Part shown: positions 1,523-19,057 of the stretch, one piece after another | Layout: each line of letters begins with the position of its first letter | How positions within the stretch are numbered: the first letter of the stretch is position 1 | NCBI GenBank assembly: GCA_965371445.1 | Contig: CBDUYN010000022.1 | Coordinates: 19,482-83,481, forward strand | Source of the DNA: an uncultured bacterium | Lineage (GTDB): Bacteria; Acidobacteriota; Thermoanaerobaculia; Multivoradales; J023 | DNA: 64,000 bases | Direction: 5' to 3' | Made by a program: the position numbers and the translations under genes | The notes under the pieces: generated by a model | Databases searched by the model: none | Told to the model about the DNA's origin: nothing | What the model saw: only the letters and a program-made list of their open reading frames with translations

Positions 1523-2593
1523 ATGAGCGAGATCGCGATCGGGAAACGGCAGGTTGGACGGAGGTGGGCGGCGCCGATCCTGGCCCTCACCCTGGGGGCG
1601 TTCCTCCTCTCCTGCGCCGCAGAAGCCCCCCCTGCCCCCACCGCGGAAGCCGCTGCTTCGGAAACCGCCGACACCGGCACGCCCCTGGAGTACCAGGAAT
1701 TTGAAACCGCGCCGCCCGGAGGGAGCTACAACCAGAGGGCGAACCTCGTCCAACGCGGCCACCGGGTCTACCGCAAGTACTGCATCGGCTGCCACGGCGA
1801 GTACGGCAACGGCCAGGGACCGGCCGCGAAACGCCTCATCACCCAGCCGCGTGACTTCACGAAGGGCATCTACAAGTTCCGCTCCACCGATTCCGGCAGC
1901 CTGCCGCTCGAAGAGGACCTCTACCGCACCATCACCCGCGGCCTCTCGCGGGTCTCCATGCCGGCTTTTCCGCTGATGCCCGAGAACGAGAAGCTCGCCC
2001 TGATCGAGTACCTGAAGACTTTTTACCCCCGCTGGGAAGACGAGAAAGACGACCGCCGCGTCGTGCCGATCCCCCGCGCCCCCGAGGACATCGGCTCCGA
2101 GGAGCGGATGATGCGGGGACGCGTCGTCTATCTCGGCATGCAGTGCCTCAAATGCCACGGCACCGACGGCCGCGGCACCGGCGCCACCCAGAAGGAGTAC
2201 GTCGACTCCTGGGGCCACCCGCAGAAGGCTTTCGACTTCACCCGCGGGTCGCTCAAGGGAGGCAACGCCCCCGAGGACATCTACCGCACCTTCCACACCG
2301 GGCTGCGCTCGATCATGCCGTCCTTCGGCGGCGACACCCTCTCGGCGGTCACCGCCGACACGATCCCGGGGTTCGCCGAACAGGCCGGCCTGAGCGGCGA
2401 GATGGCCCGGCTCGAGCCCTACCTCGCCGAGTTCCCGGCCGACGGCGACGCCCTTTACTCTGCGATGAGCGAATCCGAAAGGCTCGAGCTCGCCGCACGC
2501 AACAGCTGGGACCTGGTGGCCTACATCCTTTCCCTGCGCACCACCGTCAACACCGCACCGGCTGTCTTGGGCAGCAGGTTGGCGGACGGCTAG
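1523..2593 (+). CDS. Diheme c-type cytochrome lipoprotein (CcoP-like), upstream of ccoN
   Basis: Two CxxCH haem-binding motifs (CIGCHGEY and CLKCHGTDG). N-terminal signal peptide with lipobox (LLSCAA). 356 aa. Confidence 0.8.
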   Translation: MSEIAIGKRQVGRRWAAPILALTLGAFLLSCAAEAPPAPTAEAAASETADTGTPLEYQEFETAPPGGSYNQRANLVQRGHRVYRKYCIGCHGEYGNGQGPAAKRLITQPRDFTKGIYKFRSTDSGSLPLEEDLYRTITRGLSRVSMPAFPLMPENEKLALIEYLKTFYPRWEDEKDDRRVVPIPRAPEDIGSEERMMRGRVVYLGMQCLKCHGTDGRGTGATQKEYVDSWGHPQKAFDFTRGSLKGGNAPEDIYRTFHTGLRSIMPSFGGDTLSAVTADTIPGFAEQAGLSGEMARLEPYLAEFPADGDALYSAMSESERLELAARNSWDLVAYILSLRTTVNTAPAVLGSRLADG

Positions 2594-2609
2594 AGGAGCT
2601 GCTGAGTCG

Positions 2610-4067
2610 ATGAGCGAACCCACCCAAACCGAAGCCCACACGGAGGGCGCCGCCGAGAGGAGCGCGCCGGCGACGTCGCTGGTCAACTACGGCGTCGTCA
2701 AATGGCACGTCATCGCCGGTGTCTTCTGGCTCTCGATCGCGCTCGTAGCGGGGCTGCTCTACTCGCTCCAACTCCTCCAGTACTGGCCGCTGCCCAAGAT
2801 CGCCGTCCTCTCGCCGGGCAGGATCCGGTTCATCCACACCAACATGATCGCCTTCGGGTTCCTGACCAACTCGTTCCTGGCGATGCTCTACTGGACCGTG
2901 CCGCGCCTGACCGGCAAACGCGTCGCCTCGAAGACCCTCGGTTGGGTGATCCTCGTGGCCTGGAACGCCATCATGGCCTTGACCTACGTGGGCCTTCACC
3001 TCGGCGAAGCGCAGGCGGTCGAGTGGGGCGAGACCCCCGTCTGGGTCGATCCCTTGGTCGTCGTCGGCGCGGTCCTCATCTGGATCCAGTTCTATCCGCC
3101 GATCATCCGGACGGCGGAAAAAGCGCTCTACGTCTCTTTGTGGTACTTCTCAGCCGGTTTCGTCTGGCTCGGCCTGACTTACATCATGGGGAACTTCTTC
3201 CCGCAGTACCTGGTCGCCGGCAACGCCGCGGGACCGCTTCTCGGGCTTTACATTCACGACCTCGTGGGCCTCTGGGTGACGCCCATGGGCTGGGGCATGA
3301 TGTACTTTTTCGTGCCGATCATCTTGAAAAAGCCCATCTGGTCGCACGCGCTTTCGCTCGTCGGCTTCTGGGGGCTCGCCTTTTTTTACCCGCTCCAGGG
3401 CGTTCACCACTTCCTGGGCTCGCCGATCCCGATGTTCGCCCAGTACTCGGCAATCGTCTCGACGATCGCGATCGAGATCGTGGTGACGACGGTCATCATC
3501 AACTTCTTCATGACCTGGAAAGGCAGCGACGCCTCGCTTCGGACCTCGATTCCGCTCCGCTGGTTCTGGGTCGGAGCGCTCGCCTACACGATCACCTGCT
3601 TCCAGTGCGCGTTTCAGGTGACCCTGACGTTCCAGCAGGTGATCCACTTCACCGACTGGGTCGTAGGGCACGCCCACCTGGTCATGTTCGGAGTCTTTAC
3701 CTTCTGGATCTTCGGCATGGTCGAGCACCTGTGGCCAAAGCTCGTCGGCCAGGAATGGTGGAGCGAGGGGCTAAGGCGTTGGGCTTTCTGGCTGATCGCC
3801 CTGGGCCTCGGCTCGATGTTCCTGGCCCTGACCGCGGGCGGGCTCATCGAAGGCTTCATGTCGATGAACCTCGTGCCGCGCGAGACCATTCTCCAGACCA
3901 TGCGCCCGTTCTGGATCGTGCGCTCCATAACCGGGGTCATGATCATCACCGGGTTTACCTGTTTGGTGGTCAACATGATCGCCACGGCAAGAGCCCGGGT
4001 CGCCGCACACGTCGACACCGAATACGCTGCCTACGAAAAGGAGGAGGTGGCCGTTGGAACGGTTTAG
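2610..4067 (+). CDS. ccoN: cbb3-type cytochrome c oxidase subunit I (CcoN, haem-copper oxidase C-family)
   Basis: 485-aa polytopic membrane protein with about 12 predicted helices and conserved His ligand pairs (GVHHFLG, VVGHAHLVMFG). ccoO follows immediately. Confidence 0.88.
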   Translation: MSEPTQTEAHTEGAAERSAPATSLVNYGVVKWHVIAGVFWLSIALVAGLLYSLQLLQYWPLPKIAVLSPGRIRFIHTNMIAFGFLTNSFLAMLYWTVPRLTGKRVASKTLGWVILVAWNAIMALTYVGLHLGEAQAVEWGETPVWVDPLVVVGAVLIWIQFYPPIIRTAEKALYVSLWYFSAGFVWLGLTYIMGNFFPQYLVAGNAAGPLLGLYIHDLVGLWVTPMGWGMMYFFVPIILKKPIWSHALSLVGFWGLAFFYPLQGVHHFLGSPIPMFAQYSAIVSTIAIEIVVTTVIINFFMTWKGSDASLRTSIPLRWFWVGALAYTITCFQCAFQVTLTFQQVIHFTDWVVGHAHLVMFGVFTFWIFGMVEHLWPKLVGQEWWSEGLRRWAFWLIALGLGSMFLALTAGGLIEGFMSMNLVPRETILQTMRPFWIVRSITGVMIITGFTCLVVNMIATARARVAAHVDTEYAAYEKEEVAVGTV

Positions 4068-7402: not shown

Positions 7403-7488
7403 CAGCGATGCGGCACGAGGACGATCAGGAGGACGGAAGAAGAGAGACGCCATCTCGACCCGCGCCGGAGGGTGAGGGGGCTTGGCCG

Positions 7489-8034
7489 TCAAGGTTGCCA
7501 GAGCTCGTCGCCCTCGCGGACGACCAGCCAGAGCCTCTGTAAGGCGCCGGTGACTCCGGGAAGGACGCCCGCGAAAATCTCAAGGCAAAGCTCCGGCGCC
7601 ATGCGTCCATGGCGGGTCCCCAGAAGCGGCAGGGCAAGCGCCGTAAGACGGCGCTTCTCGACGATCGCGAACACCTCGGCGAAAGCGCTCCGAATCCAGT
7701 CCTCGTGCCAGGTCGGATCTTCGGCGAGGTCGTGGACCACGGCCAGCAACCGCAGCGGACGCCCTTCCCGAACGATGACCGTCCCCGGCGCGACGCCACG
7801 CTCCTCAAGCACGGCCGTCATCACCCGAATCGGATGCTCCGGAGGATCAGGAAGCCGTGCCGGGGCGCTCAGGACCAGGTGCGTGTCCTCCTCGAAGACT
7901 TGGGCGTCGACCGCAAACGGCGGTGCCGTCTCCGGAGCGGCGGCGATGCACAGCGCCGGAGCTTCGCCGCGGAAGCCCTGCAACGTCTTCGGATCGCGTC
8001 CGCCACGGATCAGCCGCCAGTCCTGCCGTCTCAT
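7489..8034 (-). CDS. Hypothetical cytoplasmic protein (macro-domain-like C-terminal half; tentative)
   Basis: 181-aa ORF with plausible codon usage, ending ...LWLVVREGDELWQP. No strong motif recognised. Confidence 0.45.
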   Translation of the reverse strand: MRRQDWRLIRGGRDPKTLQGFRGEAPALCIAAAPETAPPFAVDAQVFEEDTHLVLSAPARLPDPPEHPIRVMTAVLEERGVAPGTVIVREGRPLRLLAVVHDLAEDPTWHEDWIRSAFAEVFAIVEKRRLTALALPLLGTRHGRMAPELCLEIFAGVLPGVTGALQRLWLVVREGDELWQP

Positions 8035-8335
8035 TCTCGTCCAGGGGCCACCTGTTCAATGCGCGTCGAGGTACGCGTCGATCCTCTCAGCGGGAGCCTC
8101 CCCGGCGTTCGACGCCGCCGCGGGGATCACCGCGGCAAGGAGGAGAATACGGGTTTCGGTCTTCAAGGCAGGATGAATCATGGTCACGCTCCGAGGCTTC
8201 GTCGTTTTGCAGGTCCCTACGCGAAGCCCCCTCCGAAGGTTTCGCGGTGTTGGGAGTCCAGCCCTTGCCCTGACGGCAAATGTTCTGTTAACATTCTCGC
8301 TCTGCTCACATCGTCCCGACCAGGAGGTTCGAGAG

Positions 8336-10228
8336 ATGCCGAACACCGTCTTGCGCCTATCCCGTGGATCCGCCTTGATCGCTGGAGCCGTGCTGGCCAT
8401 GCTGCCACCAGCCCAAGCCGACGTCACCCTCGAGACCCTGGCCACCGGGCTCGACCTTCCGGTGGCGGTGACGCACGCCGGCGACGGCCGGCTCTTCATC
8501 TCCCAGCTGCGAGGACAGGTGCTCGTCCTCCAGGACGGCGAGATCCTCCCCGAGCCCTTTCTCGACGTCACCAGCCGGGTCCTCGGCACGGGGCACGGCC
8601 TGCTCAACCTCGCCTTCCATCCCAACTACGCGGAGAACGGCTTCGTCTACGCCCACCTGGGCGAGAAGGGGACCGCCGACTCGATCGTCGTGCGCTACCG
8701 CGTCTCGGCCGACGACCCCGGCCGCGTCGACCTGGAGAGCGAGGTCGTCTTGTTGCGGATCGTCAAGGAGATCCGGCGTCACTACGGAGGGCAGCTGCGC
8801 TTCGGCCCCGACGGCTACCTCTACGTCTCGACCGGCGACGGCAGCGGACGCGACCCGGACACCCGCGAGGACCTGATCGACCCCGAGTGCGCCTCCCAGG
8901 ACGTCGGCCGTCTGGAGGGCAAGCTCCTGCGCCTCGACGTCGACCGCAACGTCGACGTGGCGCCGTACTACGCCGTCCCCGACGACAACCCCTTTCGGGG
9001 CTCCGGCCTGGGCGAGGTCTGGGCGACGGGCCTGCGCAACCCCTGGCGGTTCTCGTTCGACCGCGAGACGGGCGACCTGTGGATCAGCGACGTGGGCCAG
9101 GACGACCGGGAGGAAGTCAACCTGCAACCGGCCGGCTCGCCCGGCGGCGAGAACTACGGCTGGAAGATCATGGAGGGGACCGACTGCTTCGGCGACACGA
9201 CAGGTTGCCGGGGCAGTGTCCCGGTCTGCCACGCCGCGACGATCACGCGGCCCGTCCTGGAGTACTCGTACCGCTCCGGCTGCTCGGTGACCGGGGGGTT
9301 CGTCTACCGCGGCAGCCTCGTCCCGGAGCTCTACGGCCGCTACGTCTACGGCGACTACTGCCAGGGGACGATTTGGGCAGCCGAAGAGGTCGACGGCGCC
9401 TGGCAGACCGAGGAGCTCCTCCCGCGTCTGCCCTGGGTCGTGTCCATCGACGAGGAGGCTTCCGGAGAGCTCCTGCTGAGCGACCACCTCGGGGGCGCGG
9501 TGTATCGGCTCGTCGATCCGACGCTTCCCGAAGCGGGCCTCGTCGAGCTTGAGGCGACGAGGTGGGAGGCCGTGGAAAGCGACGGCGAGGTGCTCCTCGG
9601 CGTCCGGCGGCTGGGCGAGGCAGTGGGTGAGGTGAGCGTCCAGGTTCTCCTCCGGCCCGGAACGGCCAGGGCGGGCACCGACTACATGGCTCTGCCGGCC
9701 ATCCTGAGCTGGAGCGACGGCGAAACGGGGACGAAGCCCTTTCCCGTCAAGCTGCTCGACGACACGGAGGACGAGCCCCTGGAGACAGCGACGGTGGAGC
9801 TCGTCGCGCTGCCGGGCGATGCGATCCTCGGGGCGCGTTCCCGGGCGACGCTCGCCGTCGCCGACGACGACGAGCCGACCTGCGTCGCCAACTTCCGGCA
9901 CCTTTGCCTCAACAAGGGACGCTTCCGCGTCTCCGCCAATTGGCGGACCGCGGACCGAACGGGCCTGGGCTACGCCGTGCCACAGGACGAGAACGACGGC
10001 TCCTTCTGGTTTTTCGGCTCCAAGAACCCGGAGCTCTTCGTCAAGGTTCTCGACGCCTGCTTCGACCCCTTCCGTCACTACTGGGTCTTCGCCGCCGGCT
10101 TGACCGACGTCGAAGTGAGCCTGCGGGTCGTCGACACCCGGACCGGCGCTCTGAAGACGTACGACAGCCCGCTCGGCAAGACCTTCGAGACGATCACGGA
10201 CACGCGGGCTTTTGCCACGTGTCCTTGA
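8336..10228 (+). CDS. Secreted PQQ-dependent soluble sugar (aldose/sorbosone) dehydrogenase beta-propeller, with Calx-beta-like domain and a ~110-aa C-terminal domain shared with the BNR protein at 23056-25325
   Basis: ATG at 8336 with a signal peptide (MPNTVLRLSRGSALIAGAVLAMLPPAQA). YliI/sorbosone-dehydrogenase-like propeller motifs (LDLPVAVTHAGDGRLFISQLRGQV, GGQLRFGPDGYLYVSTGDG, LRNPWRFSFD, CHAATITRPVLEY). A Calx-beta-like segment (GTDYMALPAILSWSDGETGTKPFPVKLLDDTEDEPLETATVEL). C-terminal domain C..FRV..NWR..FWFFG..NPELFVKVLDAC...FWVFAA.TDVE..LRV.DT..G..K.Y..PLG....TDT.AFATC. Confidence 0.8.
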   Translation: MPNTVLRLSRGSALIAGAVLAMLPPAQADVTLETLATGLDLPVAVTHAGDGRLFISQLRGQVLVLQDGEILPEPFLDVTSRVLGTGHGLLNLAFHPNYAENGFVYAHLGEKGTADSIVVRYRVSADDPGRVDLESEVVLLRIVKEIRRHYGGQLRFGPDGYLYVSTGDGSGRDPDTREDLIDPECASQDVGRLEGKLLRLDVDRNVDVAPYYAVPDDNPFRGSGLGEVWATGLRNPWRFSFDRETGDLWISDVGQDDREEVNLQPAGSPGGENYGWKIMEGTDCFGDTTGCRGSVPVCHAATITRPVLEYSYRSGCSVTGGFVYRGSLVPELYGRYVYGDYCQGTIWAAEEVDGAWQTEELLPRLPWVVSIDEEASGELLLSDHLGGAVYRLVDPTLPEAGLVELEATRWEAVESDGEVLLGVRRLGEAVGEVSVQVLLRPGTARAGTDYMALPAILSWSDGETGTKPFPVKLLDDTEDEPLETATVELVALPGDAILGARSRATLAVADDDEPTCVANFRHLCLNKGRFRVSANWRTADRTGLGYAVPQDENDGSFWFFGSKNPELFVKVLDACFDPFRHYWVFAAGLTDVEVSLRVVDTRTGALKTYDSPLGKTFETITDTRAFATCP

Positions 10229-10322
10229 CCTGAAAAGCGGCGCCAGGGCCTTATACTGTGGCCATGCGAATCGTCTTCCTGCCTCGAGCCGTTTCCTCGC
10301 CTCCAACGCGGAAAACCCCGGC

Positions 10323-11024
10323 ATGACGACCGGCGCGCTTTTCGGCTCCCTCTTCCTGGCCGGGCTGGCTGGCAGCCTCCACTGCGTCGGCATGTGCGGA
10401 CCGATCCTGCTCGGCTTCTCCCAGAGCCTCAAAAGCGGCAGCCGGCTCGACTTCCTCGTCTACCACGCCGGACGGTTGTGGACCTACGGCCTCCTCGGCT
10501 TCCTGGTCGGCTGGGCGGGCTGGGAGCTGCGCATCGGGACCGACGCCCTCGTCGGCCAGCGCGGCTTCGCGGTCTTCGCGAGCGTGCTGGTGATCCTCGC
10601 CGGGGTCGCGTCCTCGGGGCTGGTGCCGGGGCTGCGGCTCAAGCTCGACATGGGGGGCTGCGGCTTCCAGGCGGCCCGCGAGCGCCGCTGGCTCATGGTC
10701 CTCCTCAAGGAACCTCGGCTCGCCGCGCGGCTCCTCCTCGGTGCCGTCATGGGTTTCTTGCCCTGCGGCCTGGTCTACGCCGTCCTGGTGATGGCAGCCA
10801 CCCTGCCGACGCCGCTCCACAGCGCGCTCGCGATGCTCTGCTTCGGCCTCGGGACGCTGCCGGCGCTCTCGGCGCTCGTCCTCGGCGCGCACCTCATCCC
10901 GGCCAGGCTGCGAGCTCACAGCACGCGGCTCGTCGCGGCGCTTCTCGTCGGCACGGGTGTCTTTATGTTGGCCCGGGCACTCCTGACGATGCCGGGACAC
11001 GAGCACGGCCACATGATGCCGTAG
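10323..11024 (+). CDS. DsbD_2/TauE-like membrane protein with HCVGMCGP motif (cytochrome-oxidase/metal-maturation-associated family)
   Basis: Six hydrophobic helices. Cys motifs LHCVGMCGPIL and FLPCGLVY. His-rich C-terminus (MPGHEHGHMMP). A start at MTTGALFGSLFLAGLAG is preferred over the upstream ORF start. Confidence 0.65.
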   Translation: MTTGALFGSLFLAGLAGSLHCVGMCGPILLGFSQSLKSGSRLDFLVYHAGRLWTYGLLGFLVGWAGWELRIGTDALVGQRGFAVFASVLVILAGVASSGLVPGLRLKLDMGGCGFQAARERRWLMVLLKEPRLAARLLLGAVMGFLPCGLVYAVLVMAATLPTPLHSALAMLCFGLGTLPALSALVLGAHLIPARLRAHSTRLVAALLVGTGVFMLARALLTMPGHEHGHMMP

Positions 11025-11089
11025 GGGTCAGGTCCCGGGCAGCATACCCTGCGCTCCGTAGCGATCGAGATACGAGCCCAGACGAAGCT

Positions 11090-11406
11090 TTCGCCGCGCG
11101 CGGCATCTCCAGCAGGTGCTCTGGCAGGTGACGCTGCAGGAAACGCCGGAAGTCGACGGCGCGATGGAACGGACGCTCGGCCACCCTGAACGGCAGCAGG
11201 CCGTTCGAGTCGACCGCTTCCATACGGACGGCGACCTGCGAAGCGGCAGCCTCCATCATCCGTGGCAGGAAGAAGACAGGCGCGTCGTCGGTCACCACCA
11301 CTGCGGCACGCTTCGCGAGGGCTTTCAGCAAGCCTCGTCCGGCCCCCGGCCGAGGGCGAAATTCCACCGCGTCCGCCGGTGGGCCACCATCCAGTAGAGG
11401 ACCCAA
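11090..11406 (-). pseudogene. Remnant of a class-II CPD photolyase-like gene (internal fragment only)
   Basis: The minus-strand segment LLKALAKRAAVVVTDDAPVFFLPRMMEAAASQVAVRMEAVDSNGLLPFRVAERPFHRAVDFRRFLQRHLPEHL resembles the class-II photolyase alpha/beta domain (VTDFSPLR...VDAHNIVP... pattern). No N-terminal region and no FAD-binding domain. The frame runs into the antisense of the neighbouring gene. Confidence 0.45.
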
Positions 11407-11700
11407 TCGCCGCCGGCACGGACCGGGGCGTCGTTCCTGAGGCGGAGGCGCGACTCAGTAGCCATCGTGCCCTCGTGGTATGCGACCTCCTCGGCGTAGG
11501 ACGGCCTGAGTCAACGGGCCGAAGATCCTGTCGAGGCAGGGGAAATCCGTATCGTGGTCTTGTATCCCGCACGGCAGCTCATAGCCATCTTATCTTAGAC
11601 CAAACGGATCCTCGGTGGTGAGATTCTTCGCGCCTCGTAGTACGTCTGCCGGCGCTCGGCGTCGATGCGGAGCCGAAGCCGCCGCCGCCGATCCGGGCCT

Positions 11701-14700
11701 TCAAGGCCCGGCGCTTACGAGCTCGGCGTGGCCGATGGTCAACTCAAGCTGTCTCAGAGCCTTGGTCATCCCCTCGACTTCCCGCCGGTAGCTCTGCGCG
11801 AGCTTCAGCGGCTCCCCCGGAAGATCCGGCACGTACCGACGGATGGACGCGGCCAAGGCAGCGTCAACATCCTGCGGCTTCTGCAAGGCACGTGTTAGTT
11901 CCTGGACGTTGTTACCGATTCCGAGGGTGTCGAGAAAATGCTCTTTGACGCGCTGGTCTCGCTTGCGTTCGAGATACATTCTCGCCAACCTCTCCGCTCG
12001 CTTCGCCGGTGCCGACAAGGTGCTTACGTGCCTGGTGATCGCTCCGGCGAGATCCTCGGCGTCCCGTCGAGAAAGCGAAGAGATGTGTCGGGTCATGAGC
12101 GTGGCCAACACCTCGGCGGCATGGGGTTCGTCGCTCTGTAACGACCTGGCCAGACCCCAGACCGCCACTCCGAGATTCTTGGCCAGGTCTTTCCGAACCT
12201 TGGGAGCGAGGACGCTCTCCAGATAGACCTTAGCTGGATCACTTCCCGGCTTCGCCGTGCCTGAAAGCGCCGCGACTCGTCGGGCGATCACCTTGGCCAA
12301 AATCCTGCCCGCGCGCTTCCAGAGCTTCTTTTCCCTGAACACAGCGTCAACACTCATTGCGGCGGGAGTTTTCAACTCTTGCAACAAGGACTCCCAAATC
12401 TTTCCGTCCTCGTCGGCAAGGATCGCCTGCTCCTCAGCCGCCAAGCGGCCATTCCCGCTCGAGATGCCGGGAATCGGGTTGGCGAAGAGAACCTCGAGAA
12501 GGTCGACGCGGCGTTCCTCGTCGTAGTCGAAGGCCTCCGAATAAAGAAGGACGTTCTCGAGGTCGTCTTCGGAGAGAAGCTCGGCGAAGAGCCCTTTGAG
12601 CCGCTGCAGCGCCAGCCTCCGGCCACCGGGCTCGCCGAAGTCGAAGGGATTGTGGCCCGTCGGATTGAAAGCGTGGACCAGGATCTCGTAATCTCTGATC
12701 TCGGGAGGTTCCGGAGGTTCTTCCGTAACCGCTCCCGCCTTTTTCTTCGCTCCAGCCTCGGCCTTCTTCGCCGTGAGGAGCTCACTTCGGTGATCGACGG
12801 CTTTCTGGAAGTCGTCGCGAAACCTGCTGCAAAACTCCTTGAACGTCATCCCCTTTGGCAGAACGCCGATCCGGCTCTGGCGTGTGTAGAGCTTGAAATT
12901 GTATTTGTATTTCAGCGAATCCGCAACTCTTCCTCCCCGCGCATCGGCGGGATCAACGAGGATCTCGATCCCTGCTTCCTTGAGAGCGTGTCTCACCCTG
13001 CCCTCCTTGGCGGGGAGGCAATCGAGCAGAGTCTGGACCGGACCCGTTCCGGCTCGGACGGTGAGAACATAAGGCGTCATGGCGTGGGTTTCAAGAAAGC
13101 GTTCGATCGTCTCTAGCTCCAACCGTAGGAAGAGTTTCTTGAGGAGTGGCTTACATCCTGGTGGCCGGGGCCTGGTCACCATGGGTCCCAGGCTCGTAGT
13201 CGGGACGGTTGGCACGGCGGCCGGTTGCACTGGCGGTGGGTGCGGCCTCGCGTCCGCGCTGTCGGCAGCGTGCTCTACCGTGGACCCGAGGCCGAAAGCC
13301 TGCCACATCAAATCTTTCTTGTTGTTCAGCCAAACCCCTTTGGCAAGATGATCCTGCAAGGTATCCAACTCTTGGCCGAAGCCGCCCGGCCTCATTCCAC
13401 GCTCTTCCACCAAGTCCCGCCATTGCGGCAGGAACTCGTCGAGGCGTAGGAACTCCCAGGTGCTGGCCCAGTTGCCGCTACGAAAGTCCTGCTTGGCTTC
13501 GAGGTAAGCCCAGGCCATGAGGATGCCGATCGGCTTGTGAATCGTCCCGATCGGGTACTGGGCCTCCCTCGCCGCCAGGACCCTACAGACTCTCTTTCGG
13601 ATCGCCTGGTGTGTAAGCGTTCGAGTGAAATACAAGATGATGGAGATCAAGCTGAAGCTCATGATTTCGTCCTCGAAGAACTCCTTCGCCATGACCCCGC
13701 CGACTGCCTCCTGAACCCAGCTAGCGATCGACAGCTCACCTGCTTCGACAAGGACGTCCGTCGGCTCGTCGAGCTTGTAGAAGCCCTCCGACCCTTGTGG
13801 CAGGCTGCCTCGCCGCTGGATCACGTCGAGGATCCTGGCCGTCTTGAATCGGAAAGGCTCAGGCTTGAGGCCGTGGCTCTTGAGGAAGGAAAGGTAGGAG
13901 TCGACGAGCCGGCGAAGCTCGTTCACCTTTCTCAGCTCCACAGCGAGGTCCTCGAGCTTGAAGCCTTCCAGCGCGGCCAGTAACCGCGCGAGCTCACCGG
14001 GTTCGACGTGTTCCGTGGGTAACCGCCCGCTGCGAACCAGGACATTGGCCAGCGCGTTCAAGGTTTGTTCGTCGCCCTTTGGCCAGACGGGCTCGAAGAT
14101 CCTCCCTCCGCGCTCGTGGTAAAGCACGACGAGCACTTGACACGAAATGTCCAGCTCGACGGCCAAGGCCCGCGCACAGCACTCCACGGGGTCGGTCGGA
14201 TCCTCCTCCAAGAGGAGGTTTGTCAGGTCGATGCGCCGAGCGGCGCTCAGCGTGGCCTCGGCGTAGACCTCAACCGTGCCTGCCATTCGGTCGACCACGC
14301 CGCAGCTCGCCGCGATCCTGGCGTTGAGGGCGGCCAGGAACGCCTCGAACTGAAAGCTCTCAAGCTGCTTCAGGAGCTTCAGGAGGAGATTCACCGACGC
14401 ATCGTCGTCCGCCCTGAAGTAGTCTTGGGGAAATCTACCAGTCCCCAGAAGCAGGCCGGCCAACTTGCGAAGGACCTCTTCCTCGGTTCGCGGCCAGTGG
14501 GGTAGGGAGATCCCTCCCTTGCGCTCACGGTAGAGGACTTTGAGCACCTGATGCGAGACGTCGAGCTCGCGGGCAAGCTCCTCCGCGCAGGCTTCGGGGA
14601 GCCCCTCGGGCTTTGTCGATACGAGCTTGCGCGTCAGCTCCCTCTTCCGCGGCTCGTCGAGGCTTCCCAGGCCGTAGGTCTCGATGACGATCTGAAAACC

Positions 14701-15441
14701 GTCAACGACCTTTCGGGCCCTCTCAAGCTCATCCTCAATCTGCTCGACGAGAGTTTGGATCTTAAACATCCTGGCCGACGTCAACAGCCGCTCGACGAGC
14801 CCGATTCCCTCGATCGCAAGCTCGCCCGCGAAGTATTTCCTAAAAGACCTTCCGAGCTTGCCACTCCGGACCAAGACCTCGGCCAGAACCTTCTTCGCCT
14901 CTGGACCCTCCTTGAAAATGGACGCCCCTCCGTCCCTCTCCCGCTCCTCGTAGAGAATGGAAATCACTTTCCCGAGCCGACGAAGCCGATTTCCGTCGGC
15001 CGGACTGGAGATGATCAGACTCTCCTGTACGAGGCTCTTTGCATAAGACCTGAGGGGATCATCCTCTTGCGCCGACTCCTTGCTGAGCCTCGCTGAATAC
15101 TTGATGGGAAACTTGACACCGTAGTAATCGAGAGCGCTCTCCAACGTCTTCGCCATGTTGACGTAGAGTTTCTTGCGCTTCTGCCTTTCGAGCCAAGCGC
15201 TGCCGCCAGGTATGAAATCGATCAGTATCGGAATGAAATTCGCAAACCATTTCACATGACTCGACAGATACAGCGCCAGGATTCCTAAGACGCAGGTCAG
15301 GTAGGGCGCCAGCTCGGACTTTCCCCATTCCTTGAGGTATACCGGCCCAAGATAGAGTGCCACGAACAGCAGGAAGGCTGCCGCCACGAGGCAGGTCGAG
15401 GCCTTCAGGACACCTTGAAACTTCAGGACAGCAGTATTCAT
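11701..15441 (-). CDS. Large (1246 aa) hypothetical membrane-anchored protein with an internal ~60-aa repeat. GC (~57%) is lower than the flanks, so it is likely horizontally acquired.
   Basis: N-terminal TM helices (LVAAAFLLFVALYLGPVYL, LTCVLGILALYLSSHV). Internal duplicated motif LPEACAEELARELDVSHQVLKVLYRERKGGISLPHWP vs PVECCARALAVELDISCQVLVVLYHERGGRIFEPVWP. No recognisable catalytic motif. Terminator-like hairpin ccgggccttcaaggcccgg at the stop. Confidence 0.7.
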   Translation of the reverse strand: MNTAVLKFQGVLKASTCLVAAAFLLFVALYLGPVYLKEWGKSELAPYLTCVLGILALYLSSHVKWFANFIPILIDFIPGGSAWLERQKRKKLYVNMAKTLESALDYYGVKFPIKYSARLSKESAQEDDPLRSYAKSLVQESLIISSPADGNRLRRLGKVISILYEERERDGGASIFKEGPEAKKVLAEVLVRSGKLGRSFRKYFAGELAIEGIGLVERLLTSARMFKIQTLVEQIEDELERARKVVDGFQIVIETYGLGSLDEPRKRELTRKLVSTKPEGLPEACAEELARELDVSHQVLKVLYRERKGGISLPHWPRTEEEVLRKLAGLLLGTGRFPQDYFRADDDASVNLLLKLLKQLESFQFEAFLAALNARIAASCGVVDRMAGTVEVYAEATLSAARRIDLTNLLLEEDPTDPVECCARALAVELDISCQVLVVLYHERGGRIFEPVWPKGDEQTLNALANVLVRSGRLPTEHVEPGELARLLAALEGFKLEDLAVELRKVNELRRLVDSYLSFLKSHGLKPEPFRFKTARILDVIQRRGSLPQGSEGFYKLDEPTDVLVEAGELSIASWVQEAVGGVMAKEFFEDEIMSFSLISIILYFTRTLTHQAIRKRVCRVLAAREAQYPIGTIHKPIGILMAWAYLEAKQDFRSGNWASTWEFLRLDEFLPQWRDLVEERGMRPGGFGQELDTLQDHLAKGVWLNNKKDLMWQAFGLGSTVEHAADSADARPHPPPVQPAAVPTVPTTSLGPMVTRPRPPGCKPLLKKLFLRLELETIERFLETHAMTPYVLTVRAGTGPVQTLLDCLPAKEGRVRHALKEAGIEILVDPADARGGRVADSLKYKYNFKLYTRQSRIGVLPKGMTFKEFCSRFRDDFQKAVDHRSELLTAKKAEAGAKKKAGAVTEEPPEPPEIRDYEILVHAFNPTGHNPFDFGEPGGRRLALQRLKGLFAELLSEDDLENVLLYSEAFDYDEERRVDLLEVLFANPIPGISSGNGRLAAEEQAILADEDGKIWESLLQELKTPAAMSVDAVFREKKLWKRAGRILAKVIARRVAALSGTAKPGSDPAKVYLESVLAPKVRKDLAKNLGVAVWGLARSLQSDEPHAAEVLATLMTRHISSLSRRDAEDLAGAITRHVSTLSAPAKRAERLARMYLERKRDQRVKEHFLDTLGIGNNVQELTRALQKPQDVDAALAASIRRYVPDLPGEPLKLAQSYRREVEGMTKALRQLELTIGHAELVSAGP

Positions 15442-15600
15442 ATCGCTCCCATGGGAGTACAGGCTATACCGAGGGTGGATCCGAGCCTCCCGCTTCGTCC
15501 TAAGGAAGGACCCGATCCGTTCGTCGGTCGATACTTCATCTTCTATAGTACCGGGTACGAACCTGGTAAAGCACCACTCGAAGGGGGGGGGAGCAGCGCG

Positions 15601-15630
15601 CCGCAGGGTGGTTTCTTGCCCACCCTGCGG
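15601..15630 (-). terminator. Intrinsic-terminator-like hairpin (11-bp perfect stem CCGCAGGGTGG/CCACCCTGCGG, 8-nt loop) 26 nt downstream of the TPR gene stop; no U-tract
   Basis: Perfect inverted repeat seen directly in the sequence. Adjacent G9 homopolymer at 15583-15591. Confidence 0.45.
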
Positions 15631-15655
15631 GATAGGGCGGTCCCACCGCCTCGTG

Positions 15656-16393
15656 CTACGCGGTCGTCGGCATGGCCTTCAACATCTGCTTGGCCTGACG
15701 GAACCAGCGCCTCTTGCGCCGCTTCAGGAACTTCGGCGCGTCCTTGTACTCCTCGATCCCCAGCTCGAGCTGGGCTCGGGCGTCGGCACCTCTTCCGGAC
15801 TCGTGCAGGAAGTGGGCGTAGAAGACCCGGTGCTCGAGGCGGGGGCTCTTGACCACCAGGATTTCGAGCAGCTCGATCGCCTCGTCGCGGAGGCCCGCCG
15901 CGGCGAGAGCCTGCGCGAGGTCGGCCCAGGGCGCGTACTCCTCGAAGGCCGGATCGCGCTCGATCAGCCGGCGCAGGCTCTCGATCGCGGGCTCGGACTC
16001 GCCCACGCGCAGCTGGGTGAGAGCGAGCCCGTAGAGGGCGTCGCGCGAGTCGTCTTGGAGCCGCAGCGCCTGGCCGAAAAGCTCGGCCGCCTCGGCGTAG
16101 GCACCGTCGTCGTAGAGGGCCTGGGCGAGGGTCAGCGTGTTGGCAAAACTCCGGGTCTCGTCGTACTGGCGGCGTACCTGGTCGGTCGTGACCTTGGGGG
16201 TCACGAACCGCTTGTAGAAGTCGCGCAGGAAGTTGAATTCCGGGTCGTGGATCTTGACCACGAAGAAGTAGACCCACTCGCCGAAGGGCATCATCACGAC
16301 AGGGTACCAGTAGGTCTGGGCCCTCCGCCGGATCGCGTCGACGAGCATCCAGAGGCTGAAGATCGTGTCGAGGAAGAGGAGAATCCGTATCAT
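15656..16393 (-). CDS. TPR-repeat protein with N-terminal TM helix
   Basis: Start at MIRILLFLDTIFSLWMLV (ATG rc at 16391-16393). TPR-like helical repeats (AEAAELFGQALRLQDDSRDALYGLALTQLRVGESEPAIESLRRLIERDP...). The upstream part of the track ORF is probably spurious. Confidence 0.6.
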   Translation of the reverse strand: MIRILLFLDTIFSLWMLVDAIRRRAQTYWYPVVMMPFGEWVYFFVVKIHDPEFNFLRDFYKRFVTPKVTTDQVRRQYDETRSFANTLTLAQALYDDGAYAEAAELFGQALRLQDDSRDALYGLALTQLRVGESEPAIESLRRLIERDPAFEEYAPWADLAQALAAAGLRDEAIELLEILVVKSPRLEHRVFYAHFLHESGRGADARAQLELGIEEYKDAPKFLKRRKRRWFRQAKQMLKAMPTTA

Positions 16394-16477
16394 GGTGTTG
16401 CGCCCGCACGGCCGTTGGCCGGTCCATTGTAGACCGAACGGATCCATTCGATCTTCAGACGTTCTATCCTGGGCCGT

Positions 16478-17272
16478 ATGATCGCATGGAAAGCCCTCAA
16501 AGCGGAGCACGCTCATCGTCCCTGGCCGCTCGATGCGCGGCCCTGGGTCATGACGATGTCGTGGGCCGACCTCCTCTTCGCCCACTGGACAGTGCCCGAG
16601 GAGAAGCTTCGGGAGCGCCTACCGCCGACCCTCGAGCTCGACACCTTCGACGGCCGCGCCTACCTCGGGGTGGTGCCCTTCCGGATGGAGGCGGTGGGCC
16701 CGCGGGGGCTCGGCTGGTTGCCGTCGCGCCTGCCGTCGCCGCGCGCCTTTCCGGAGCTCAACGTGCGCACCTACGTCCGCGTCGGCGGCAAGCCAGGGGT
16801 CTTTTTCTTCAGCCTCGACGCGACCTCGCGGCTGGCGGTCTGGGGCGCCAGGACCTTTTTCCACCTGCCCTACATGAGCGCCGAGATCCGGGTAAGCCGT
16901 GATCACGGCTCCATCCGCTACGAGAGCCGCCGCCGCGATCCGCGCGGCGGCGAGGGGGACTTTCTCGGAAGCTACCGCCCGGAGGGCGGGGCCTACCTCG
17001 CGGAGCCGGGCTCCCTGGAGCACTGGCTGACCGAACGCTATTGCCTCTATGCCGTCGACGCGCGGGGACGTGTGCGGCGCGCCGAGGTCCATCACGTGCA
17101 GTGGCCCCTACACCGTGCGACCGCCGAGATCGAGGTCAACACGGTGGCCGAGGCCCAGGGCTTCAAGCTCGTGGGGCCGGCCGAGCACCTCCACTTCGTC
17201 GACCGCATCGACGTCCTCGCGTGGTGGCCCGAAGACGCAATGACCGGTCCTCCGATCCTACGGCGGCGCTGA
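16478..17272 (+). CDS. DUF2071 (YqjF-like) family protein
   Basis: Typical DUF2071 N-terminus (...PWVMTMSWADLLFAHWTVPEEKLRERLP) and a conserved RTYV..GGKPGVFFFSLDA segment. 264 aa. Confidence 0.7.
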   Translation: MIAWKALKAEHAHRPWPLDARPWVMTMSWADLLFAHWTVPEEKLRERLPPTLELDTFDGRAYLGVVPFRMEAVGPRGLGWLPSRLPSPRAFPELNVRTYVRVGGKPGVFFFSLDATSRLAVWGARTFFHLPYMSAEIRVSRDHGSIRYESRRRDPRGGEGDFLGSYRPEGGAYLAEPGSLEHWLTERYCLYAVDARGRVRRAEVHHVQWPLHRATAEIEVNTVAEAQGFKLVGPAEHLHFVDRIDVLAWWPEDAMTGPPILRRR

Positions 17273-18006
17273 ATCTCGTCGACGAATCCGGCGCCGAGCA
17301 CTGCCGTCGGGAGTGCGAAGAAGGCGATGCCCAGGATGGCGACGAGACCGCCGAGGACCTTACCGACAGGGGTCACTGGGTAGACGTCGCCGTAGCCGAC
17401 CGTGGTCAGGGTGGCGACCGCCCACCACATCGTGGACGGAATGTCGGGATAGGCTGCCGGCTGGGCCTCGTGCTCCGCGTAGAACATCAGCGAGCTCGAC
17501 AGGACCAGGAGGCCGACCATCAGGGCGGTCATGACGATCAGCTCCTCGCGCTTGTCGCGGGCGACGGCGCCGAGGACCTGGAAGGCGTGGACGTAACGTG
17601 CTAGCTTCGCCAGGCGCACGAGTCGCACGAGCCGGAAGATCCGCGCCACCCTGAGATCCAGGCCCAGGAGAGGTAGATACGCAGGCAGGATTGCCGCCAG
17701 GTCGATGATGGCCATGGGAGTCGCCGCCCACCTGACACGGCCGCGGAGTGCTCCCTGGAAGCGGCGGTCGACAGTGCAGCTCGCCAGTCTGGCCGCGTAC
17801 TCGATCGTGAACGCGGCGACGGACAGGCGCTCGAAGGCGTCGAGGAAGGCGCCGGCGGCCTCGTGGACCGCTTCGACTGTCCCGACGATTACGGCGATGA
17901 CGTTCGCGGCGATGAGCGCGGACATCGCCGCGTCGAACAGGCGGCTCAGGCCGTCGTCGTCTCGGGCGGCCGGCTCGAGGATTTTCCAGAGGCGCTCTCG
18001 GACCAT
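17092..18006 (-). CDS. Voltage-gated K+ channel (6-TM Kv-like). Its 3' end overlaps the DUF2071 gene by 180 nt on the opposite strand, so the true stop may lie earlier or one gene carries a frameshift.
   Basis: S4 voltage sensor RIFRLVRLVRLAKLARY, pore helix and selectivity filter TLTTVGYGD. The C-terminal ~60 aa of the ORF (GPVIASSGHHARTSMRST...) looks like read-through antisense. Confidence 0.75.
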   Translation of the reverse strand: MVRERLWKILEPAARDDDGLSRLFDAAMSALIAANVIAVIVGTVEAVHEAAGAFLDAFERLSVAAFTIEYAARLASCTVDRRFQGALRGRVRWAATPMAIIDLAAILPAYLPLLGLDLRVARIFRLVRLVRLAKLARYVHAFQVLGAVARDKREELIVMTALMVGLLVLSSSLMFYAEHEAQPAAYPDIPSTMWWAVATLTTVGYGDVYPVTPVGKVLGGLVAILGIAFFALPTAVLGAGFVDEIQRRRRIGGPVIASSGHHARTSMRSTKWRCSAGPTSLKPWASATVLTSISAVARCRGHCT

Positions 18007-18293
18007 GTGACCGGCACTCTAGCACGGCCGACTGAACCCCGGATGCCTCCAGGGCCTCCATCACCGGATAGGCGGCGTGTCGACCGCAGCCGGTTGACGC
18101 GGGCTCCCCGCCCGTGGCATGCTAGCAGCATGATCGCTCAAGCAAAGACCCACGCCCTCGCGACGTTACGCAGGCTCTCGCCTCGGGGATGCAGCATGAC
18201 CGCTCAGGCACGGGCCGGAGGGTTGACCCCGCCGCTGGCGGCGGTTACTCCATGCCTGATCAGACTGCGCCACCAACCGATGGAGTTGCAATG

Positions 18294-18545
18294 ACCAGGG
18301 AATCTCTCTACGCGAACCCGTCGTTTCTGTCTGGCGTAGCCAGGATCTTCGATTTCTGGGGCCTCTTCGATTCCTACAACACCAGCGCCGATGACGAGAC
18401 GGCCGACAGTATAGCTATCGGCTCCGACTGGCGAGCAGTAGGAGAAGATTTGCGCGCAGCGACTCAGGAATTCGAGGACTCACATCGCGGCGCCCAGCAG
18501 CTGGACCTCTTCGCTATGGCCGCCGATGAAGGACGCAACGGATAG
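18294..18545 (+). CDS. Small acidic hypothetical protein (83 aa), translationally overlapping the DUF2335 gene
   Basis: MTRESLYANPSFLSGVARIFDFWGLFDSYNTSADDETADSIAIGSDWRAVGEDLRAATQEFEDSH... Local GC ~56%, lower than surroundings. Its stop overlaps the next gene's start by 20 nt. Confidence 0.4.
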   Translation, partial: TRESLYANPSFLSGVARIFDFWGLFDSYNTSADDETADSIAIGSDWRAVGEDLRAATQEFEDSHRGAQQLDLFAMAADEGRNG

Positions 18546-19044
18546 TCAGGAGCTTGAGCGCCGGCCGGAGCCGCAAGCGCCAGAAGCGGTCGAGTCGGGC
18601 CCCGGCTCGGCCGTGGTCTCCTTTGCGGCCGAACAGAGAGTTACCTTCGCAGGGCCGTTGCCACCCCCGCTCGTACTGGGGCAATACGAGGAGATTTGCC
18701 CTGGGGCGGCCGACCGTATCATATCAATGGCGGAGCACCAGTCAGCTCATCGCCAAAAGCTGGAAAGCGCAGTGGTAGCTTCCAACTGCGAAGGTCAGCG
18801 CCGCGGGCCACTTTTCGGCTTTGCCTTAGCATCAATGGTCATCCTCATCGGAGGACTACTCCTCTGGAACGGCAGGGACGTGGCTGGATTGACAGCACTC
18901 ATTACGGCACTTGCCTCGATCGTCGTTCCGTTCGTGTTGTCCAAGCATCGGCAACGAGCAGAGCTGGAAAAACGCCGATTCCGGGATCCGGACCACCCCC
19001 GGCCGGAAGTAGGGCCAGCTGCGGAAGCGACGCCCAGCCCTTGA
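18526..19044 (+). CDS. DUF2335 family membrane protein
   Basis: Region GAADRIISMAEHQSAHRQKLESAVVASNCEGQRRGPLFGFALASMVILIGGLLLW matches the DUF2335 signature (conserved MAE.EQ.HR segment followed by two TM helices). Confidence 0.6.
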   Translation: MKDATDSQELERRPEPQAPEAVESGPGSAVVSFAAEQRVTFAGPLPPPLVLGQYEEICPGAADRIISMAEHQSAHRQKLESAVVASNCEGQRRGPLFGFALASMVILIGGLLLWNGRDVAGLTALITALASIVVPFVLSKHRQRAELEKRRFRDPDHPRPEVGPAAEATPSP

Positions 19045-19057
19045 CCCGCAATGCATG

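Follow-up and report, generated by a model that had tools for sequence, protein, structure and literature searches.

How a very large gene came to stand between two genes that lie side by side in a relative, and whether its arrival destroyed one of them, is the question raised by a locus in an uncultured acidobacterium. The stretch analysed here (the window) comprises 64,000 nt of contig CBDUYN010000022.1 (GenBank assembly GCA_965371445.1; GTDB lineage Acidobacteriota, Thermoanaerobaculia, Multivoradales, J023). On its minus strand, between the gene of a TPR protein and the remains of a class-II-type photolyase gene, it carries a 1,246-codon gene that we call BIG. A reading of the DNA made without database searches (hereafter the sequence-only reading) had proposed that BIG was acquired horizontally and that its insertion destroyed the photolyase. 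Our analysis retains the first half of this proposal and discards the second: a single-gene islet probably entered a tightly coupled TPR–photolyase operon, and the photolyase would have decayed separately. The features of the locus, in their order on the minus strand, are as follows.

15656–16393, minus strand: intact TPR gene, 245 amino acids (aa) (TPR matches in Pfam; translation beginning MIRILLFLD).
11617–15641, boundaries ± 25 bp, minus strand: foreign cargo of ~4.0 kb (BLAST of the relative L083 against the window, and alignment of the junction).
15442–15641, minus strand: 5′ spacer of the cargo (from the sequence; Shine–Dalgarno motif GGGAG 5 nt ahead of the BIG ATG).
11701–15441, minus strand: BIG gene, 1,246 aa from an ATG start (open reading frame (ORF) and translation).
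11693–11711, minus strand: 8-bp GC hairpin over the BIG stop codon (TGA, 11701–11703; −19.5 kcal/mol, z −2.4).
11486–11616, minus strand: TPR′, a gutted second copy of the TPR gene (repeat search and alignments).
11098–11465, minus strand: class-II-type photolyase pseudogene (tblastn frames; match to PDB 2xry at E 0.003; 60 homologs).

The insertion site is empty in a relative

A scan of metagenomes with the TPR protein returned two relatives of the locus, L083 and L084. In L083, positions 1824–3427 are colinear with window positions 17237–15649, which hold the TPR gene and a divergent DUF2071 gene (83% nucleotide identity), and positions 3451–3532 correspond to window positions 11450–11369, the 5′ end of the photolyase gene, at 88% identity. 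The junction of L083 reads TAG cccgaggacgcg TTG, so that 12 nt lead from the TPR stop codon to the photolyase start codon where the window has 4.2 kb. Since TPR and photolyase genes are contiguous in L083, window positions ~11451–15648 are an insertion between them. The comparison with relatives that the sequence-only reading had recommended thus finds the two genes adjacent, without BIG, and supports insertion.

The 12-nt spacer of L083 (3418–3436, aligned with window 15656–15640 and 11491–11463) holds a GAGGA Shine–Dalgarno motif, and the photolyase starts with TTG. This arrangement suggests that TPR and photolyase may form a translationally coupled operon in L083; we know of no description of such a pairing.

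In the second relative, L084 (Ga0210339_1223838), the retained TPR gene is followed by the 12-nt spacer and the opening 13 nt of the photolyase gene, after which unrelated DNA begins; BIG does not follow its TPR gene. L084 thus lost its photolyase independently, at this very junction, and because unrelated DNA took the place of the gene, the TPR/photolyase junction is a recurrent rearrangement point. The replacing DNA (L084 835–1213) encodes a small Cys-rich protein with a signal peptide (ATG at ~894). Synteny among GTDB species representatives, with the DsbD_2 gene of the left flank as anchor, was uninformative: these genomes had no common right-hand neighbours and no photolyase. The nearest genomes for the flanking genes are metagenome-assembled genomes of Phycisphaeraceae, at only ~46% identity; from these matches, the source organism was judged to be probably related to Planctomycetota.

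The inserted gene deviates at third codon positions

BIG has a GC content of 60.1%, compared with 67.2–67.3% in either flank. The drop seen in the sequence-only reading is therefore real and smaller than stated there (~57% against ~69%). No other 3.7-kb stretch of the 64 kb has a lower GC than BIG, although an island at 51.7–53 kb equals it. The decisive compositional signal is the GC content of third codon positions (GC3), which is 75.0% in BIG and 83–92% in ten native genes nearby that have Pfam support. The log-likelihood of its synonymous codons under native usage is likewise an outlier (−1.15, compared with −0.74 to −0.95 for the neighbours), so that the proposed check of codon usage came out on the side of a deviant gene.

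Could BIG nevertheless be native, its low GC following from amino-acid composition or low expression? Its GC at second codon positions (41.6%) is within the range of native membrane proteins, its overall GC is only ~2 standard deviations under the window mean, and some members of its protein family are likewise 2–5 GC points lower than their own flanks. However, the deviation is concentrated at third positions, beyond the reach of amino-acid composition, and the cargo DNA is physically absent from the orthologous junction of L083. A native origin is thus highly improbable and largely refuted; the absence of the DNA from the site in L083, together with the deviant codon usage, bears out horizontal acquisition.

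In the cargo, BIG is preceded by a 5′ spacer of 200 bp and followed by a 3′ spacer of 84 bp. Within the 5′ spacer are an 11-bp perfect hairpin (15601–15630; −25.9 kcal/mol, z −3.6) and a C9/G9 homopolymer (15583–15591); this homopolymer and hairpins at both ends of the region had been pointed out before and are present. Neither the 15601–15630 hairpin nor that at 11693–11711 is followed by a U-tract, so they are not canonical terminators. BIG probably has its own promoter, as well as its Shine–Dalgarno motif, within the 15442–15641 spacer. A scan of the BIG spacers for consensus promoters and terminators called nothing, and a search of Rfam gave no relevant match.

The cargo lies between two copies of the TPR gene

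On the minus strand, an upstream region (U) and the intact TPR gene are followed by the 200-bp spacer with its hairpin and C9 tract, BIG, the 84-bp spacer, a second upstream region and TPR copy (U′–TPR′) and the photolyase remnant. TPR′ comprises an upstream region (11555–11616), a start codon altered from ATG to ACG (11552–11554) and codons 1–13, down to 11517. Positions 11517–11616 form a direct repeat of ~100 bp, ~80% identical, of 16354–16450, that is, of the TPR upstream region and 13 codons. The remaining part of TPR′, 11486–11516, matches TPR codons ~86–102 (16087–16137) colinearly, with a block of 14 identities in 15. An assignment of CCTACGCCGAGGAGG (11486–11500) to the stop region of TPR was rejected, as the gapped alignment favours internal TPR codons ~98–102, with agreement at 14 of 15 positions.

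TPR′ and the intact TPR gene share an insertion of ~20 nt, ATACGGATT and other derived positions that L083 and L084 lack; because the derived features are shared with the intact copy and not with the two relatives, the duplication arose within the lineage of the window. TPR′ is the remainder of a gene-sized target duplication (~0.8 kb) around the ~4.0-kb cargo.

The intact copy encodes a small N-terminal membrane segment and TPR repeats, and its upstream region spans 16394–16450. It has the GC3 of a native gene (92%), and its product is 80–82% identical to those of L083 and L084. A possible frameshift in this gene was considered and rejected: MIRILL… and the TPR ORF share one reading frame, and the gene is 15656–16393.

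The photolyase was damaged away from the junction

Searches by tblastn with four homologs (P0004, P0007, P0008 and P0012) recovered two segments of the photolyase, at E values from 1e-7 to 3e-32. The first, in frame −3, contains the ATG at 11465 and the first ~47 codons (11331–11465); the second, in frame −2, spans 11098–11355 and corresponds to homolog residues ~99–187. Between them, at ~11331–11355, a change from frame −3 to frame −2 interrupts the reading frame, with ~50 codons (~150 bp) deleted. Everything past residue ~190 is gone, amounting to the 3′ ~60% of the gene (~870 bp) and to the C-terminal ~290 aa with the FAD-binding domain. No photolyase-like sequence was found beyond ~11098; the opposite strand carries the DsbD_2 gene, whose end is at 11024. 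The remnant is 57–68% identical to 60 metagenomic proteins, several of them named deoxyribodipyrimidine photolyase. It is therefore a true pseudogene that has retained its own start: a class-II-like piece on the minus strand, as the sequence-only reading had it, and more than the purely internal fragment described there.

The class II cyclobutane pyrimidine dimer (CPD) photolyase of Methanosarcina mazei (2xry) aligns with the remnant over its N-terminal α/β domain, at residues 33–55 and 127–200. Unlike that enzyme, the remnant is frameshifted and lacks ~50 internal codons and the whole FAD-binding domain, so that even the N-terminal α/β domain is present only in part, with ~50 residues deleted. 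All 60 homologs were returned at lengths of 222 aa or less, a caveat for protein lengths in that collection. A stand-alone family of ~200-aa N-domain photolyases was considered and rejected, the homologs coming from contig ends or from frameshift-ridden long-read assemblies; of the two contexts inspected, L085 (ENA ERZ25039470) has CysS split into four ORFs, and L086 (ERZ25039600) has three consecutive ORFs spanning ~1.5 kb.

These lesions do not fit the proposal of a photolyase destroyed by the insertion. The start codon and ~47 codons were retained downstream of the junction, and both lesions, the internal deletion with its frameshift and the 3′ loss, are 110–370 bp from it, on the far side; the 3′ truncation faces the DsbD_2 gene and not BIG. 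A copy of the TPR upstream region (U′) was, moreover, left ahead of the photolyase after the event. Because the lesions are off the junction, U′ was kept and L084 lost its photolyase independently, loss of the photolyase looks like a separate process that recurs here. The most that the insertion would have done is to uncouple the photolyase from the TPR gene, its tightly coupled partner. The case of L084 also shows that the photolyase gene is expendable in this group.

A single crossover would account for the layout

The preferred account of an islet entering the operon, followed by separate decay of the photolyase, can be written as a series of steps. The ancestral state would have been a tightly coupled operon with the TPR gene first and the class II photolyase gene second. 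A circular DNA bearing a copy of U–TPR together with the cargo would then have integrated by a single, Campbell-type crossover, yielding U–TPR, cargo, U′–TPR′ and photolyase in this order. Later, the redundant TPR′ and the photolyase would have decayed by separate deletions, while the 1,246-codon ORF of the cargo stayed intact, presumably kept by selection.

Campbell-type integration is how integrated plasmids, suicide vectors and some genomic islets enter chromosomes. As in such DNA, the cargo here lies between direct duplicates of a host segment, one copy functional and the other decaying, and the BIG site has no short target-site duplication and no terminal inverted repeats; the duplication is gene-sized, not of 2–15 bp. 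Unlike such integrants, the BIG site has no replicon, recombinase or mobilisation gene, the circular intermediate being hypothetical, and the second copy is by now reduced to ~130 bp at 80% identity. The locus also resembles integrase/tRNA genomic islands in that the BIG DNA is compositionally deviant, absent from a relative and placed between direct repeats. Of the marks of integrase-mediated islands and prophage remnants, direct repeats and deviant composition are found (~100 bp at 80%; GC3 75% against 83–92%). In contrast to those islands, the BIG islet is a single gene without an integrase or a tRNA or tmRNA target, and its repeats, unlike the att core of islands, are copies of the ends of a protein-coding gene.

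We consider a Campbell-type crossover to be the simplest single event that would give this layout. The main alternative has two steps and no circle: a tandem duplication of U–TPR, and later an illegitimate capture of foreign DNA between the copies. It would produce the same final layout, and the lack of a recombinase gene suits it. However, it requires that two rare events, independent of each other, took place at a single position, and a bare TPR–TPR tandem occurs in neither relative, making this a rather unlikely course.

The polarity of the event could also be reversed. If the cargo were ancestral, relatives such as L083 would have lost it by homologous recombination between the TPR copies. 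The arrangement of L083 is just what such recombination between direct repeats would produce, and the divergence of the copies to ~80% identity means that the event was not recent. Yet the derived features of the left repeat match only the TPR gene of the window, dating the duplication after the split from L083 and L084; the codon usage of BIG is still unameliorated; and L084, too, is without BIG after TPR. We therefore regard an ancestral cargo as very improbable.

Several points weigh against the preferred account of insertion into the operon. At the site, no integrase, transposase, tRNA or terminal inverted repeat was found, and the mechanism of integration is inferential: Pfam searches showed no recombinase among the neighbours of BIG, which is the only long ORF of the insertion, and no transposase domain; the repeat search gave no inverted repeat pairing the two ends of the cargo; and ARAGORN, run over the whole window, found no tRNA or tmRNA. 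The closest homolog of BIG is only ~30% identical and comes from a genome of 70% GC, in which its composition is native-like. Only two relatives of the locus are available, both short (3.5 kb for L083 and 1.2 kb for L084), and L083 ends 82 bp into the photolyase gene, which leaves the downstream state of the photolyase in relatives uncovered.

Architecture of the BIG protein

The 1,246-aa ORF described in the sequence-only reading is real, as is its hydrophobic N terminus, with a first transmembrane (TM) helix at aa 8–37 and a second at ~45–63 that is supported by conservation in the family. This two-TM hairpin (aa ~8–63) is followed by three all-helical modules of ~135 aa (aa ~128–530), a helical domain (aa ~530–720), a Pro-rich linker (aa ~720–765), a conserved α/β core (aa ~765–985) and a helical extension (aa ~990–1246). 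The internal repeat noted earlier therefore exists, in the form of three ~135-aa copies (m1, aa ~128–262; m2, 263–400; m3, 401–530) instead of a duplicated module of ~60 aa. Modules m2 and m3 are 41–45% identical (E 2e-20), and m1 and m3 are 30% identical (E 7e-8). A basic cluster, ERQKRKK, comes after the hydrophobic region; from this and the two TM helices, we infer that the bulk of BIG is cytoplasmic.

Using AlphaFold2 with the family alignment, we generated a model of aa 380–1060 (pLDDT 79.7, pTM 0.58) with all-helical modules followed by an α/β domain. In the model of the core alone, which is confident (aa 757–991; pLDDT 84.4, pTM 0.82), a sheet of 4–5 strands is packed by helices. A Foldseek search of these models against PDB and BFVD gave no match better than E 0.1; the weak matches were to ferredoxin-like, GGDEF and Thg1 folds, at probabilities of 0.41 or less. 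Profile searches of PDB sequences were empty. The predicted core fold is thus apparently new, with no detectable structural relative.

BIG has no significant match in Pfam, NCBIfam, PHROGs or PADLOC, the only sub-threshold match being one in NCBIfam to a TM helix; the earlier remark that the protein has no recognisable enzymatic motif agrees with this. The residues of the core that are invariant in the family (R781, Y791, Y847, Y852, R857, G859, P862, D877 and A944) do not form a recognisable catalytic signature. BIG keeps every one of the family-invariant residues in its intact long ORF.

A sizeable family without annotation

The homology search suggested in the sequence-only reading showed that BIG is not an orphan: an exhaustive HMMER profile search returned 161 cluster representatives at E ≤ 1e-3, of which 112 reach E ≤ 1e-10 and 51 reach E ≤ 1e-30. 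The best-scoring relative is P0062 (382 bits). None of them is annotated: every named member is a ‘hypothetical protein’, and the clusters hold 1–4 members. A word-index search with whole BIG, and also with a 35-sequence family profile, returned only P0001, its index being saturated by common words; P0001 (727 aa) is 22% identical to BIG and colinear with it from the TM anchor through the core.

The plan of the family is a two-TM anchor, conserved across the family as an N-terminal hairpin in a TM scan, then 1–4 copies of the helical ~135-aa module, then the helical domain and core. Typical members have 700–800 aa, with the TM hairpin, one module, the helical domain and the core; a minority of 1,300–1,590 aa have, like BIG, 3–4 modules. 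BIG shows every feature of the family, with its two-TM hairpin, at least one helical module and a core with the invariant residues. It has in common with members such as P0062 (1,530 aa), P0084 (1,324 aa) and P0001 the hairpin, the module motif LY.ER.G...W......LA.VL.RSGRLP and the core motifs TIERFLE and KY.F..YT...RIG.VP.G..F. It stands apart by its long form with three modules, by its identity of at most ~31% to any member, and by its C-terminal helical extension of ~250 aa, which is weakly shared with P0062, P0084 and P0096 only.

A comparison of 35 + 17 members with Pfam and PADLOC gave no family-wide match and five isolated Pfam matches to single members (best E 3e-4). One member, P0076 (L089 829–4140), lacks the TM anchor and has, C-terminal to the conserved core, a CHAT domain (a caspase-like protease), the only recognisable domain seen in the family.

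We inspected the genomic contexts of eight members. They are solitary genes without a conserved partner, in genomes of 39% to 71% GC. One member (P0079) adjoins a type IV restriction enzyme, PDC-S11 and an HNH enzyme; another (P0001) has two integrases nearby, a third (P0088) an ISL3 transposase immediately upstream and a fourth (P0084) PIN and SNF2 genes nearby. Thus, one of the eight contexts is a clear restriction island, and integrases, a transposase or PIN/SNF2 genes mark three others, in a sample too small for statistics. No relatives were found in plasmid, phage and IMG/VR collections.

Neighbouring genes and other outliers of the window

Two further genes border the locus.

16478–17272, plus strand: DUF2071 gene, divergent from TPR (Pfam; synteny with L083).
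10212–11024, plus strand: DsbD_2-family membrane protein (Pfam), convergent with the photolyase remnant and abutting its truncated end.

An ion-channel gene lies beyond the DUF2071 gene. Inside the latter, a single-copy sub-threshold Rfam match to CRISPR-DR20 (16914–16956, minus strand; 26 bits against a gathering threshold of 42, E 0.04) is almost certainly due to chance. The left flank is a cbb3-type oxidase cluster with cytochrome c, CcoN, CcoO, a P-type ATPase and a GSDH/Calx-beta protein, DsbD_2 being the last. At 7472–10228, a domainless 234-aa ORF and the GSDH/Calx-beta gene stand between the CcoI-like P-type ATPase and DsbD_2 genes. The nearest relatives among Phycisphaeraceae and Acidobacteria (L004 and L005) have the ATPase and DsbD_2 genes side by side, so that this segment is possibly a further lineage-specific insertion, here within the cbb3 assembly cluster.

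Two more compositional outliers were seen in the window. A 445-aa ORF without a Pfam match (51687–53024, minus strand) lies in a sharper low-GC island at ~51500–53000 (48–57%, compared with a window mean of 67%) and is a second foreign gene, probably more recent than BIG. The third outlier, 18000–19050, has a regional GC of ~62% and contains a DUF2335 gene (18526–19044, plus strand) with a GC3 of 64% and the worst codon log-likelihood among all genes tested.

Function and significance

Our best guess, as a working model, is that BIG is a membrane-tethered cytoplasmic sensor or scaffold and a self-sufficient mobile accessory gene, with the helical repeats as the putative binding site of a ligand or partner and the α/β core as the putative output module.

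Within this model, conflict between genomes, as in defence against phages or mobile elements, is tentatively taken as the likeliest biology, although its probability is put well below one half. Single-gene membrane-anchored anti-phage proteins are a general class in defence islands. Like these, the BIG family is solitary, large, patchily distributed and equipped with an N-terminal TM anchor, some members are near restriction enzymes, integrases or transposases, and one is fused to CHAT. Unlike known defence proteins, BIG and 35 family members match none of the 5,027 models of PADLOC-DB v2. The defence association comes from ~4 of the 8 contexts and the rest are housekeeping neighbourhoods, which likewise counts against it. 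In a bolder and unlikely reading, the family would be a new, self-sufficient conflict system that moves horizontally and has no kinship with catalogued defence families or solved folds: a membrane-tethered protein would sense an invader-derived ligand with its modules, and the core, novel in structure and in some cases replaced or lengthened by a CHAT protease, would set off the response.

The competing view of the family, as a housekeeping or structural membrane scaffold that would organise the envelope or intracellular membranes, has a real if minority chance of being right. The mostly α-helical repeats with a membrane anchor and no catalytic motif, the ordinary housekeeping neighbourhoods of several members and the lack of a PADLOC match are in keeping with it. 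By contrast, the distribution is patchy and rare (clusters of 1–4 members), solitary members adjoin genes for integrases, a transposase or restriction enzymes, a CHAT protease is fused to one member, and BIG itself arrived at its locus by insertion.

The insertion scar described here is real, well resolved and of a known general kind, and its evolutionary story is ordinary; the gene-sized target duplication is unusual. The locus offers a clean natural example of a single accessory gene entering a chromosome without any recombinase, with the site occupied here and empty in a relative, and with a target duplication of gene size midway in its decay. A second lesson is that an insertion is not necessarily what killed the pseudogene beside it. 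Finally, the BIG family is sizeable, entirely unannotated and a good candidate for follow-up: it comprises at least 161 sequence clusters, in genomes of 39–71% GC, that have neither a name nor a domain model, and with its confidently predicted core and its recurrent neighbourhood of mobile or restriction genes it invites concrete tests for an accessory or defence function that would be new.

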